DNA from: a virus
Lineage: Duplodnaviria; Heunggongvirae; Uroviricota; Caudoviricetes
IMG/VR virus record: IMGVR_UViG_2534681774_000032
Span: 1-33,164 of that record
Length of the DNA: 33,164 nt
Direction: 5' to 3' (one strand)
A model generated the notes under the pieces. The model saw nothing but the letters and a program-made list of their open reading frames with translations. It was not told the DNA's origin and did not search any database. Positions 3,872-6,737 of the stretch are shown here, piece by piece (positions within the stretch are counted from its first letter, which is position 1; every line of letters begins with the position of its first letter). The position numbers and the translations under genes are program-made.

Positions 3872-4063
3872 TTAAAGACCTGCCGGGATTTCGTTATTAT
3901 CCTGGTGAATAACTTTATCGACCGGGTAACAGTTACCGGGAATTTTCTGTTCGGTTGCTGCAGTCACACACTCCTGCATTGTCCTGTGAACACTGACTGC
4001 AATATCAACTGGCTCTCCGGAAACAAGAAAAACTGTCAGAACAAGTGCAAATGCTGTATTCAT
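3872..4063 (-). CDS. Small secreted/membrane protein, YdfD-like (63 aa, N-terminal hydrophobic segment)
   Basis: Internal ATG of ORF 3872..4117 gives MNTAFALVLTVFLVSGEP...; start overlaps the stop of the dicB-like gene (ATGA); same position and length as ydfD downstream of dicB in Qin. Confidence 0.45.
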   Translation of the reverse strand: MNTAFALVLTVFLVSGEPVDIAVSVHRTMQECVTAATEQKIPGNCYPVDKVIHQDNNEIPAGL

Positions 4064-4248
4064 TGCCAGCATCCTTTTTGTATCGGACGTAAACGGGCCA
4101 GCATTGAAAGAATGCATATTTTATTTAATAGCTCCCGTTCGTGTTTTCTCTTGTTAATGGCATCTTCAGTAAATACAGGGTTACTGATAGTGACACCAAT
4201 TTCAAAACAACCTTCAGACGTATTAACGTTTGGTAATAACGTTTCCAT
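4060..4248 (-). CDS. dicB: DicB-like cell-division inhibitor (62 aa)
   Basis: Internal ATG (4248) of ORF 4060..4353 preceded by GAGG; product METLLPNVNTSEGCFEIGVTISNPVFTEDAINKRK... closely matches remembered DicB; located just downstream of a DicF-like sRNA. Confidence 0.6.
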   Translation of the reverse strand: METLLPNVNTSEGCFEIGVTISNPVFTEDAINKRKHERELLNKICILSMLARLRPIQKGCWQ

Positions 4249-4423
4249 TATCGCGTCCTCAACAATGAATTTTGTGATGTGGTGCCTGGTGCCTCCAGGT
4301 GACGTTAACCAGTTAACAATTAACGCCGGATACAGAGAATCCACCCATAACACTGTTTTTGGTTTTAACTGTTCCGCGTGCGCTCAGCCGCATTCACCGC
4401 ATCACAAAATTCACTTTAAAAAC

Positions 4424-4475
4424 GGCGGCAGAGCAGTCACGGAGTAAAACTGATACCGCCAAACGTCACCAGAAA
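4424..4475 (-). ncRNA. dicF: DicF-like small RNA (about 52 nt, ends in a GC-rich hairpin plus U-run)
   Basis: Minus-strand sequence TTTCTGGTGACGTTTGGCGGTATCAGTTTTACTCCGTGACTGCTCTGCCGCCGTTTTT matches remembered DicF almost base for base; lies between the ydfC-like and dicB-like genes as in Qin; ends approximate. Confidence 0.55.
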
Positions 4476-4815: not shown

Positions 4816-5034
4816 TTAACGCGGGTATGTAATCATTCTGGCAATGCTTAATGCCGCTGCTTTTTCCAGCCTGGTGATATCCTGCTCCAGAGCGGACAGA
4901 TTTTCAGCCTGCTTAGCCCTGGCTTCATTGGCCCATTTCAGATCCTGCGCTGCATTAATTTTCTGGCGCATCCACTCATAAAGTTCATCATCGGTATAGT
5001 CTGGCGAGATGATGACGGGTTCTCGTTTCTGCAT
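4816..5034 (-). CDS. Small prophage early protein, YdfC-like (72 aa)
   Basis: 72-aa ORF in the leftward early operon; length and position match ydfC of the Qin dicB operon. Confidence 0.45.
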   Translation of the reverse strand: MQKREPVIISPDYTDDELYEWMRQKINAAQDLKWANEARAKQAENLSALEQDITRLEKAAALSIARMITYPR

Positions 5035-5063: not shown

Positions 5064-5192
5064 TCAGCCGTTAGATTTTGCCGAGCTGGAAAGCGCCTGT
5101 TTAAACTCACTGAAGCTGAGAGCTTCTTCGCCTTCGGCAAGGCCTTCGAAGTATTCTTCGTAAGCCTTTTCCATGATTGTGTCGAAATCCAT
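5064..5192 (-). CDS. Small acidic protein, YdfB-like (42 aa), below the ORF-track size cutoff
   Basis: ATG at 5192 preceded by AGGTGAGTG; translation MDFDTIMEKAYEEYFEGLAEGEEALSFSEFKQALSSSAKSNG; stop TGA at 5066-5064; fills the gap between the flanking small genes. Confidence 0.4.
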   Translation of the reverse strand: MDFDTIMEKAYEEYFEGLAEGEEALSFSEFKQALSSSAKSNG

Positions 5193-5193
5193 A

Positions 5194-5349
5194 TCACTCA
5201 CCTGAGTTTCTTTCCAGCCAGCGACGGGCACCATTTTCGGTTTTAAACGTTTTGCTTCTGGTATACGTCATCGCGGTAAACGTGCCGTCCTGGTTGGGAA
5301 ACACGCCGCATACCAGAGATTCGTTGTTGCCAAGATCGATAGTATTCAT
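5194..5349 (-). CDS. Small prophage early protein, YdfA-like (51 aa), first gene of the leftward operon
   Basis: Internal ATG (5349) of ORF 5194..5403 preceded by GAGG; product MNTIDLGNNESLVCGVFPNQDGTFTAMTYTRSKTFKTENGARRWLERNSGE; immediately downstream of the OL-like operator cluster. Confidence 0.45.
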   Translation of the reverse strand: MNTIDLGNNESLVCGVFPNQDGTFTAMTYTRSKTFKTENGARRWLERNSGE

Positions 5350-5428
5350 GCTGACCTCATTTCCCCTTAACGCCGGGGTAGCGGAACTGTTTGCTGAGAA
5401 CACCGTGCGGTGTCTTGGTGGAGATTAA

Positions 5429-5480
5429 TTTAGAATAACCTAACAAATGTAGCAAGTATTTTTGTTAGATTGGTCTAACA
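5429..5480. promoter_or_regulatory. Left operator cluster (OL-like): two TGTTAG-N6-CTAACA type palindromes
   Basis: Perfect TGTTAG-attggt-CTAACA at 5463-5480 and a weaker TTTAG-N6-CTAACA at 5429-5445, between the repressor 3' end and the first leftward gene; same palindrome recurs in the repressor/cro intergenic region. Confidence 0.5.
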
Positions 5481-5516
5481 AAAAGAGTGAGGGAATCTAA
5501 GTATCTGAAAGGAGTG

Positions 5517-5924
5517 TTATTTTATTGATTTGTTTTTACGTGCTTTAAGCATTTCTTCGAAGAGTTTATTGAAATTCTCTACTCTTGCGCGCATTTCAGA
5601 CAGTAAGGCTTCCTGCTCGGAGGAGGGAAGAGCATCGAATAATTCGATCAATTCTTTGTGGCTGGGAGTTAACTCGGTTTCCACATGAAGTTCTTGTGCT
5701 GGCACTGGTGCCTTGTCTTCGTCACCAAACATTAGCCATGTAGGCGAGCACTTCAGCGCATCAGCTAAAGCAAATAACCGCTTCCCGACCGGTTGGGTTT
5801 CGTCTCTTTCCCATTGTGAAATTGTGACGTGAGCTACCCCAGCGAGGCGTGCAGCTTCTCGTTGTGTTAGGCGTAATTCTTTTCGTCGTGCCAGAACTCG
5901 CTGGCCTAGGGTTCTTGTATCCAT
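5517..5924 (-). CDS. dicA: Prophage repressor, DicA-like XRE-family HTH protein (cI analogue)
   Basis: 135-aa ORF; N-terminal HTH LTQREAARLAGVAHVTISQWERDETQP; C-terminal CSPTWLMFGDEDK...EMRARVENFNKLFEEMLKAR resembles DicA; divergent from a Cro-like gene; flanked by operator palindromes. Confidence 0.85.
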   Translation of the reverse strand: MDTRTLGQRVLARRKELRLTQREAARLAGVAHVTISQWERDETQPVGKRLFALADALKCSPTWLMFGDEDKAPVPAQELHVETELTPSHKELIELFDALPSSEQEALLSEMRARVENFNKLFEEMLKARKNKSIK

Positions 5925-5926
5925 AG

Positions 5927-5991
5927 TTAGGTAATTCTAATTTTTCTTGACTTAGGTATCCCGCGCACATTACTGTTAGGAATATCTAACA
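5927..5991. promoter_or_regulatory. Right operator/promoter region (OR-like) with rightward promoter
   Basis: GTTAG-gtaatt-CTAA at 5926-5940 and perfect TGTTAG-gaatat-CTAACA at 5974-5991; candidate -35 TTGACT (5947-5952) and -10 TACTGT (5971-5976) overlap the operator; RBS AGAGGGGG precedes the cro-like start. Confidence 0.5.
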
Positions 5992-6004: not shown

Positions 6005-6232
6005 ATGCTTAAAGTTGACGCAATTACTTTTTTTGGCAGCAAAACAAAACTTGCCAATGCCGCAGGAGTGAAACTGGCAAGTGTTGCTGCATGGGGGGAA
6101 CTGGTTCCTGAAGGTCGCGCGATGCGCCTGCAAGAGGCATCCGGCGGGGAACTTCAGTACGACCCCAAAGTTTATGACGAATATCGTAAGGCAAAGCGGG
6201 CGGGGCGGTTGAACAATGAAAATCACCCCTGA
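6005..6232 (+). CDS. dicC: Cro-like regulator, DicC-like
   Basis: 75-aa product from ATG 6005 (ORF track starts at TTG 6002); FGSKTKLANAAGVKLASVAAWGELVPEGRAMRLQEASGGELQYDPKVYDEYRK resembles DicC/YdaS; divergent from the repressor. Confidence 0.8.
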   Translation: MLKVDAITFFGSKTKLANAAGVKLASVAAWGELVPEGRAMRLQEASGGELQYDPKVYDEYRKAKRAGRLNNENHP

Positions 6233-6737
6233 ACAGGTTTGTGAGGCTCTGGATGCCTGGGTATGCCGACCAGGAATGACACAGGAGCAGGCGACGATAT
6301 TAATCACGGAAGCATTCTGGGCTCTGAAAGAACGCCCGAATATCGATGTTCAACGCGTCACGTTTAATGATGGCGAGGTTGATCAACGGGCGTTGGGCGT
6401 TAACCGGGTGAAGATATTCGAACGCTGGAAAGCTATCGACACCAGGGATAAGCGGGAAAAATTCACGGCGCTGATTCCGGCAATTATGGAGGCTATCCGG
6501 ATCAGCGATTTCAGGTTGTATTGTGAAATTACTGACGGAAAAAGCATTACGTACATGATCGCCGGGTTAAACAAAGAATATGGTGATGTGGTGGAGTCCG
6601 GGCTGCTTTTTGCGGATCCATCTGTTGTGGAACGTGAGACTGACGAGCTTATAGAAAAAGCTATTGCTTTCAAGCATGCGTATCGTCAGCAATACCAACA
6701 AAAAGCTGGATGGAATTATGAGCCTTCTTTTTGCTGA
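6216..6737 (+). CDS. Early-right regulator-like protein, possibly YdaT-like (cII position)
   Basis: 173-aa ORF overlapping the cro-like stop by 17 nt (translational coupling); family assignment from position and vague similarity only. Confidence 0.45.
   Translation: MKITPEQVCEALDAWVCRPGMTQEQATILITEAFWALKERPNIDVQRVTFNDGEVDQRALGVNRVKIFERWKAIDTRDKREKFTALIPAIMEAIRISDFRLYCEITDGKSITYMIAGLNKEYGDVVESGLLFADPSVVERETDELIEKAIAFKHAYRQQYQQKAGWNYEPSFC

Follow-up and report, generated by a model that had tools for sequence, protein, structure and literature searches.

This report concerns the immunity region of the viral DNA record IMGVR_UViG_2534681774_000032, analysed over its full length of 33,164 nucleotides (the window), in which inverted repeats flank a gene for a helix-turn-helix (HTH) repressor related to DicA of the Escherichia coli K-12 prophage Qin. 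The window is a Qin-like lambdoid prophage of E. coli adjoining yccA; it starts with the integrase of the lambdoid prophage inserted beside that gene, and it differs from the chromosome of E. coli FDAARGOS_1059 by 4 mismatches over 15,250 shared bases. Leftward from the repressor gene, hereafter dicA, follow ydfA, ydfB, ydfC, the small RNA DicF and dicB, and to the right lie a dicC-like gene and a ydaT-family gene (Table 1). In Pfam, HTH_3 (residues 12-64) is the sole domain family of the repressor, with HTH_31 and HTH_19 overlapping the same stretch. The DicC-like protein additionally matched P22 Cro (PDB 1rzs, E 8e-8).

Table 1. Features of the immunity region and its surroundings in the window, and the corresponding sites of the K-12 locus (L001).
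Feature	Position	Strand	Sequence or basis
dicB, cell-division inhibitor gene	4060-4248	-	Pfam DicB, E 2e-37, full length
DicF small RNA	4423-4474	-	Rfam RF00039, 72.5 bits (gathering score 48)
ydfC	4816-5034	-	RefSeq annotation of FDAARGOS_1059; open reading frame list
ydfB	5064-5192	-	RefSeq annotation of FDAARGOS_1059; open reading frame list
ydfA (DUF1391), first gene of the dicB operon	5194-5349	-	Pfam DUF1391, E 1e-28; RefSeq annotation
Candidate dicB-operon promoter (dicBp)	5427-5455	-	-35 TTGCTA (5455..5450), 17-bp spacer, -10 TAAATT (5432..5427)
Candidate weaker left operator, promoter-proximal	5428-5445	strandless	ATTTAGAATAACCTAACA, 2 mismatches; over dicBp spacer and -10
Candidate strong left operator, distal to dicBp	5463-5480	strandless	TGTTAGATTGGTCTAACA, exact TGTTAG-N6-CTAACA
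dicA-like repressor, 135 residues	5517-5924	-	57% identical to K-12 DicA over 132 of 135 residues, E 3e-55
Candidate weak right operator next to the dicA start	5925-5942	strandless	AGTTAGGTAATTCTAATT, 3 mismatches; K-12 Oa equivalent
Candidate dicC promoter	5947-5976	+	-35 TTGACT (5947-5952); -10-like ATTACT (5969-5974, 16-bp spacer) or TACTGT (5971-5976, 18-bp spacer)
Candidate strong right operator	5974-5991	strandless	TGTTAGGAATATCTAACA, exact TGTTAG-N6-CTAACA; K-12 Oc equivalent
dicC-like (Cro-like) gene	6005-6232	+	83% identical to K-12 DicC; Pfam P22_Cro, E 2e-13
ydaT-family gene, CII position of the rightward operon	6216-6737	+	Pfam YdaT_toxin; RefSeq annotation of FDAARGOS_1059
rem, homologue of the Qin antirepressor	10275-10526	+	'protein Rem' in RefSeq of FDAARGOS_1059, translated from the window
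K-12 left promoter-proximal site	L001 2579		GATTAGCCATGACTAACA
K-12 left distal site	L001 2614		TGTATGCTATAGCTAACA; 35 bp from the proximal site, as in the window
K-12 site abutting the dicA ATG	L001 3075		AGTTAGCTAATGCTAAAT
K-12 exact match	L001 3125		TGTTAGTTATGACTAACA, reverse complement of the published Oc TTGTTAGTCATAACTAACAA (PMC3441716)

An initial annotation had reported two perfect 18-bp palindromes and two weaker copies (5429-5445 and 5926-5940) on both sides of dicA. Direct reading and a pattern search found both palindromes to be exact, and the weaker copies are the same sites as those of Table 1, trimmed by 1-3 bases. All four copies fall within the two intergenic regions on either side of the repressor gene, so that they do bracket it. 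The two exact copies are 511 bp apart, and the right one lies 67 bp ahead of the dicA ATG; centres are spaced by 49 bp on the right side and by 35 bp on the left. TGTTAG-N6-CTAACA occurs twice in the window without mismatch, against 0.00 in 100 dinucleotide shuffles, and five times with up to 2 mismatches, against 0.71 expected (none of the 100 shuffles reached 5). Two perfect palindromes with the same half-site within 600 bp of each other did not arise in any of 300 first-order Markov simulations. Perfect 6-N6-6 palindromes, irrespective of their sequence, are no commoner in the window than chance predicts (9 versus 8.1 expected), and at up to 3 mismatches the operator pattern over the whole window is not above chance either (11 versus 9.1). 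The copy at 5925-5942 is thus credible not by its score but by its position, since all relatives keep it 18 bp ahead of the dicA ATG. The two remaining 2-mismatch matches, one intergenic and upstream of a DNA methyltransferase gene (13316-13333) and one within a tRNA gene (14706-14723), were judged to be chance given the 0.71 expected.

Searches for further operators in the window were negative. A third operator on each side, about 24 bp from the strong sites, was not found: judged by eye, the candidate positions match at 7/12 (5950-5967) and at about 6/12 (5486-5503), which is chance level, and neither position is conserved in K-12. The published YdaT operator TTGATT-N6-AATCAA gave one 2-mismatch match versus 2.1 expected, nothing above chance.

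Promoters for dicC, dicA and the dicB operon were placed by homology to K-12 and by invariant alignment columns. The candidate dicC promoter is homologous to the K-12 dicC promoter with its mapped start (PMC3441716), and its -35 hexamer is invariant in the right-side alignment A3 described below. The palindrome at 5974-5991 covers the end of the -10 element and the start site, as in K-12, in agreement with the proposal that the right palindrome overlaps the promoter of the Cro-like gene; by position and sequence it is the equivalent of the K-12 operator Oc. On the left side, candidate dicBp is in the same register as K-12 dicBp (TTGACC-17-TAATCT), and the CAAG of its -35 hexamer is invariant in alignment A2. 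The weak copy at 5428-5445 covers the promoter from approximately -25 to -8 and has the -10 hexamer itself as its degenerate half, and the exact copy at 5463-5480 spans approximately -60 to -43, with its centre about 51.5 bp upstream of the inferred start. The dicA promoter (minus strand) has a -10-like TAGAAT (5939..5934) 9 nt before the ATG and reads GGGATA (3/6) at the -35 position; the copy at 5925-5942 covers the TAGAAT hexamer and abuts the ATG. No Shine-Dalgarno sequence precedes dicA, which together with the poor -35 agrees with reports of a weak dicA promoter in K-12 that depends on an activator. A comparable -10-like hexamer lies 6-9 nt ahead of the dicA ATG across all specificity groups considered below. 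The dicA gene may be translated from a leaderless or near-leaderless mRNA; lambda cI is likewise expressed from PRM as a leaderless mRNA.

Between candidate dicBp and ydfA, in the 5' untranslated region (UTR) of the dicB operon, two conserved hairpins were seen (5363-5414, minus strand). The first is ACACCGCACGGTGT (5400-5413), and the second (5363-5387) consists of GTTCCGCT followed by CCCC-GGCGTTAA-GGGG; compensatory changes keep pairing in 2 of the 4 pairs of the second stem across 9 loci. In more distant relatives the same UTR contains hairpins of the GCCG-GAAAGA-CGGC type, which we take to resemble lambda boxB. Possible roles of the UTR hairpins are nutL-like antitermination or stabilisation of the 5' end.

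The K-12 locus contains four matches in the same order and register as the window (Table 1). The operator Oc of K-12 overlaps the -10 element of the dicC promoter, whose start has been mapped by rapid amplification of cDNA ends (5'RACE; PMC3441716), and lies 68 bp ahead of dicA. The Oc-type sequence is present at 5974-5991, its left flank being C here versus T in the published 20-bp form. K-12 DicA represses dicC and dicBp and activates dicA. Its repression of a reporter through Oc in vivo is lost upon a single A-to-C change (Yun et al. 2012, PMC3441716); cloning of the promoter fragment on multicopy plasmids succeeded only when Oc carried point mutations, and dicA transcription needs DicA bound at Oc (PMC3441716). 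Deletion of dicA raises dicBp activity 22-fold, and Rem relieves DicA repression 165-fold (Ragunathan et al. 2023, PMC10448788). The dicA-dicC pair forms a bistable, RecA-independent switch in which dicBp turns on spontaneously in approximately 1% of cells and which is derepressed by the antirepressor Rem, heat or urea (PMC10448788). Bejar et al. (1988), as cited in PMC10448788, described three operator-like sequences in each of two intergenic regions. For DicC, chromatin immunoprecipitation followed by sequencing (ChIP-seq) gave its strongest peak at the dicC promoter itself, with a site inferred on each side of dicA and a palindromic motif TT(A/C/T)G...C(G/A/T)AA; moreover, DicC represses dicA 48- to 84-fold and binds the dicA-dicC intergenic region (Lally et al. 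2024 preprint, 10.1101/2024.09.21.614188). By analogy with K-12, where Oc binds DicA in vivo and dicBp is derepressed upon dicA deletion, the palindromes are the likely binding sites of the repressor and the dicB/DicF operon is likely to be under its control, both as the initial annotation had predicted.

To describe conservation within the TGTTAG group we used two alignments (A2 and A3) of 8 loci, comprising the window, three E. coli alleles of about 92% identity, E. ruysiae, Citrobacter, K-12 and Rahnella. Invariant columns amounted to 38/48 in the half-sites, 5/24 in the spacers and 36/135 in the other intergenic positions, and within the copy at 5925-5942 to 16 of the 18 columns. At the strong right site (5974-5991), alignment A3 shows invariant half-site columns around a varying spacer. 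Among 72 viral-contig loci with close repressors, at least 11 spacer variants were found at the Oc-type site and at least 15 at the left distal site, with half-sites exact in nearly all. Constrained half-sites around a free centre are expected of a dimeric HTH protein. Sites at matching positions were present in Escherichia, Citrobacter and Rahnella as well as on an Escherichia-like contig binned with a Collinsella metagenome-assembled genome (MAG). Escherichia-like DicA loci occurred on short contigs that had been assigned to MAGs of Collinsella, Bacillota and Veillonella (L008, L012 and L013); these most likely represent binning contamination and not real hosts, and the DicA of L008 differs from K-12 DicA by one residue. 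On a further viral contig (IMG/VR 3300013343_000009), the exact 20-bp TTGTTAG-N6-CTAACAA occurs at 507-526 and 1026-1045, on either side of a DicA-like gene of 56% identity, which mirrors the two-sided layout of the window.

Next we compared repressors and sites across 21 loci from a scan of one genome per species, supplemented with five from phage and E. coli records. Repressors with a helix 3 of the form (A/S)HV(T/S)(I/V)SQWE and T-Q-R at residues 20-22 had TGTTAG-type sites in every case, located at -67/-68 and -18 before dicA and, past the gene, at +36 to +42 and +71 to +77. In the O157 PPompW-type repressor this helix 3 is combined with S-Q-A at residues 20-22, and its sites are CCTTAG-N6-CTAAGG at -68 and CTTAG-type sequences past the gene. 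Other helices were accompanied by other sites on both sides of the gene, namely TGTTGA-type or (T)ATTGAG-TTTT-CTCAAT for ...ISLWES and TAAC-N4-GTTA for ...VFKWE. Of 80 viral loci sampled by their protein, 72 combined a TQR repressor with TGTTAG-N6-CTAAC(A/G) at -67, and 8 combined an SQA repressor with a CCTTAG-N6-CTAAGG-like site at -68. The reverse test started from 120 sampled viral-contig matches to TTGTTAG-N6-CTAACAA. For 43 of these a DicA-like gene is found 39-67 bp away, and the 43 repressors, representing 13 distinct HTH variants, carry TQR and HV(T/S)(I/V)SQW without exception. The remaining 77 agree with our rough estimate of a few hundred chance matches to a 14-base pattern in a collection of this size. 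The outer two half-site bases follow the repressor (residue 22), and the DicC HTH is nearly the same in the window and in the CCTTAG group. For the most distant groups (L015, L027, L018, L017 and L019) selecting the best palindrome between -85 and -55 automatically led to wrong frames; the cross-matrix of operators between groups is informative only for well-registered groups, and the other sequences were read by eye.

The copy next to the dicA ATG tracks the DicC helix. It has a TTAG-N6-CTAA core wherever the DicC helix is ...(K/R)LASVAAW-like, and it reads ATTAAGAT(A/T)(T/A)CTAAA, near the P22 operator, wherever that helix is P22 Cro-like (...SAVSQW), which is true of three different repressor specificity groups. 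This tracking, the DicC ChIP-seq motif, the negative result for DicA at Oa and the strong repression of dicA by DicC in K-12 suggest that 5925-5942 would be mainly a Cro-type (DicC) site, a functional analogue of OR3.

Residues 1-71 of the repressor aligned without gaps to the N-terminal domain of P22 c2 (PDB 1adr and 2r1j, E 1e-18). Q21, V33, S36, Q37, W38, E39 and R40 are kept, and A22 and N32 are changed to R and H, respectively. The P22 c2 dimer binds 18-bp operators of consensus ATTTAAGATATCTTAAAT, with a recognition helix in each half-site and a helical turn between the two (PMC5175364). In length and symmetry the DicA-type site matches the P22 operator, with which it also shares T3-T4-A5 of the half-site. 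No Pfam match to an S24 (LexA-like) cleavage domain was obtained for the repressor, which ends at residue 135, the PDB matches stopping at residue 71; this fits the RecA-independent behaviour of K-12 DicA.

Together, these data make it very probable that a Qin-like lambdoid prophage uses the four sites as operators of its DicA/DicC immunity switch. The window allele presumably behaves like K-12 DicA, to which it is 57% identical, and repressor binding as well as repression of dicC and dicBp in the window are suggested indirectly by conservation and covariation. In the switch that we propose, a dimer of the DicA-like protein, through its P22 c2-type N-terminal HTH, would bind the two-fold symmetric 18-bp TGTTAG-N6-CTAACA. 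At the strong right site, over the -10 element and start of dicC, it would shut off dicC, ydaT and the genes beyond, and by analogy with K-12 it would at the same time stimulate the weak leftward dicA promoter. On the left, the site at 5463-5480 just upstream of the -35 of dicBp and the site at 5428-5445 over its spacer and -10 would together silence ydfABC-DicF-dicB. The Cro-like DicC would act on the same sites through their inner TTAG...CTAA core and probably prefers 5925-5942, over the -10-like element of dicA and abutting its ATG, thereby turning dicA off when the switch flips. Induction would be expected through the Rem antirepressor or through loss of DicA, and not through RecA cleavage. 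The assignment of the weak copies to one protein or the other, and any cooperativity between sites, are part of this model and are to be read as such.

Several observations weigh against this interpretation. The binding and repression data for DicA all come from K-12, and even there the left-hand sites are inferred; a 2020 Reg-Seq paper listed the DicA site at dicB as low evidence, location unknown (PMC7567609). According to Yun et al. (data not shown), neither Om nor Oa, the other predicted K-12 operators, was bound by DicA (PMC3441716), so that 5925-5942, the Oa equivalent, may not be a DicA site. A simple scan for the sigma-70 consensus called none of the three promoters (dicC, dicA and dicBp), and the -10 element of dicC is poor in the window allele, whether ATTACT or TACTGT. 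Finally, the compared sequences are related, and the conservation and covariation counts are therefore not independent events.

Four alternative readings were weighed against the switch. Given that perfect 6-N6-6 palindromes as a class are no more frequent than expected, the repeats might simply be chance products of AT-rich intergenic DNA; yet two identical half-site pairs within 511 bp arose in none of the 300 simulations and none of the 100 shuffles, and the sites recur at the same positions in Escherichia, Citrobacter, Rahnella and the Collinsella-binned contig. The shuffles, the simulations and this positional conservation rule the chance reading out, its probability being negligible. The repeats might instead act as RNA hairpins, for instance the 11-bp stem at 5459-5484 as terminator or 3' stabiliser of dicA. 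The fold of the minus-strand RNA of 5450-5495 indeed has -9.4 kcal/mol (z = -6.6), a stability reached by none of 200 shuffles, and the stem is situated 33 nt past the dicA stop, where no other terminator was found. However, no U tract follows the stem on either strand, the K-12 equivalent (TGTATG...CTAACA) is imperfect and would break the stem, and the half-site tracks repressor residues, which is not required of an RNA hairpin; on these grounds the hairpin or terminator reading was rejected as scarcely credible. In addition, the same half-sites are found at three other places, one of them a promoter -10, and the fold of the right palindrome is not distinctive (z = -1.9).

The two other readings concern the proteins that use the sites. 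That the palindromes serve DicC only, with the DicA-like repressor acting elsewhere or indirectly, would accord with the K-12 ChIP-seq data, in which DicC binding is strongest here, sites are inferred on both sides of dicA and the motif is TTnG...CnAA, and with a dicA-adjacent copy that is of one sequence type in groups sharing the DicC HTH but differing in DicA specificity. We nevertheless consider it very unlikely, as K-12 DicA binds Oc in vivo and loses this binding upon a single-base change, the outer bases follow DicA residues 20-22 (TQR with TG in 72/72, SQA with CC or TC in 8/8), and the DicC HTH is almost the same in the window and the CCTTAG group. Operators shared by repressor and Cro are, moreover, the rule in lambda and P22. 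It is also conceivable, although unlikely, that only the two exact palindromes function and that the weak copies are residual similarity kept by the -10 hexamers and the dicA start. The 3-mismatch copy does not exceed chance by score, the degenerate half of each weak copy is a -10-like hexamer (TAAATT of dicBp and TAGAAT of dicA), and Yun et al. found no binding of DicA to Oa. On the other hand, register and distance from the strong sites (35 bp and 49-50 bp) are kept in all relatives, and the sequence type of the weak copies shifts with the specificity group, for example to ATTAAGATATCTAAAT next to dicA in the ATTGAG group. Furthermore, repression of dicBp needs a site in the core promoter, where only the weak copy is found, and DicC, which binds the intergenic region, represses dicA 48- to 84-fold.

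The finding as such restates the known dic locus of Qin in another allele and predicts nothing new: the operator sequence, its position in the dicC promoter, the control of the dicB operon by DicA and the layout resembling lambda and P22 have been in the literature since 1986-88 and were confirmed in 2012, 2023 and 2024. What the comparison contributes is a placement of the DicA site at dicBp, for which the K-12 compilation gives 'location unknown', as two sites 35 bp apart, one of them over the core promoter, and a DicA family that is a clean natural data set for a specificity code between repressors and operators. Residues 20-22 and outer bases were seen to pair as TQR with TG, SQN with TA and SQA with CC, and helix 3 and inner bases as SQW with TTAG and SLW with TTGA (L024, L028, L007 and viral L224-L231). 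A modular recognition code of the DicA family, in which DicC reads only the inner TTAG/CTAA core, diverged alleles are cross-immune and the dicA-adjacent site is Cro-type, is possible on the strength of these pairings but falls short of being probable. Under such a code the outer two bases would depend on residue 22, located where helix 2 begins (Arg for TG, Asn for TA, Ala for CC), and the inner part on residue 37 in helix 3 (Gln for TTAG, Leu for TTGA).

The window repressor and K-12 DicA have the same operator despite their 57% identity, which implies cross-immunity between the prophages. If the modular code is true, sequence would suffice to assign immunity groups, and the window allele would be homo-immune with K-12 DicA; in E. 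coli strains with several such prophages, of which there are many, the two would cross-regulate each other's toxic dicB operons. These loci occupy up to 7 places per E. coli genome. The window dicA allele is common, being one of several among the approximately 565 of 5,426 complete E. coli genomes in which the 901-bp immunity region was found at ≥80% query coverage, and many more genomes have other alleles.

Further along the prophage, a SIR2-family gene (8500-9531, plus strand; Pfam SIR2_2, E 1e-5; 'SIR2 family protein' in RefSeq) lies between replication-region genes and hokD, at a position like that where prophages often carry anti-phage defence cargo. It is followed by the sok antitoxin RNA (9734-9908, plus strand; Rfam, 116 bits), with hokD annotated alongside, and then by rem. 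Three tRNA genes (Ile, Arg and Arg in the matching genome) and a match to the small RNA STnc100 (139 bits) occupy 14529-15044 (plus strand) on the approach to the late region.

In gene order the locus resembles racR-ydaS-ydaT of Rac and cI-ydaS-ydaT of CP-933P, which likewise have a repressor, a divergent Cro-like gene and a ydaT-family gene in the same order but differ in repressor families and operators. The initial annotation had likened the region to OL and OR of lambda. This likeness holds for the repressor gene between flanking operator clusters, its co-directional leftward operon, the divergent Cro-like gene, the sharing of sites by repressor and Cro and the bistable switch. It fails for the operators themselves, which number two per side with centres 49 and 35 bp apart, compared with three at approximately 23-24 bp in lambda, and for the repressor, which lacks a LexA-like domain; both window proteins fall outside the lambda cI and lambda Cro families, and derepression is by Rem, heat or urea in K-12 in place of RecA-dependent cleavage. 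The locus is hence not a lambda-type tripartite operator and, because it has no cleavage domain, the repressor is not a full member of the P22 c2 or lambda cI families.

Immunity region immC of P22 is closer with respect to the proteins: the N-terminal domains are homologous, with V33, S36, Q37, W38, E39 and R40 common to the recognition helix, Cro belongs to the P22_Cro family, and 18-bp symmetric operators with a variable centre flank the repressor gene. The half-site is TGTTAG here and ATTTAAG in P22, and the P22 form ATTTAAG-N4-CTTAAAT was not found at these sites; a 65-residue helical tail replaces the C-terminal autocleavage and oligomerisation domain, two sites per side are recognisable instead of three, and the leftward operon encodes cell-division inhibitors.

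Qin of K-12 differs from the window in that its repressor is only 57% identical, its left distal site has 2 mismatches where that of the window is perfect, and it has a half-palindrome, Om, between Oa and Oc with no counterpart in the window. The window prophage adjoins yccA and appears far less decayed in the 15 kb checked, with integrase, exonuclease and replication-type genes and one annotated pseudogene; its ydaT is intact, whereas K-12 ydfX is a pseudogene. The two loci nevertheless agree in gene order and orientation (dicB, DicF, ydfCBA and dicA leftward, dicC and a ydaT-family gene rightward), in a 135-residue repressor devoid of a cleavage domain, in the presence of rem, in promoter geometry, in the half-sites TGTTAG/CTAACA and in the placement of the sites at -67/-68 and -18 from the dicA ATG and, 35 bp apart, past its stop.

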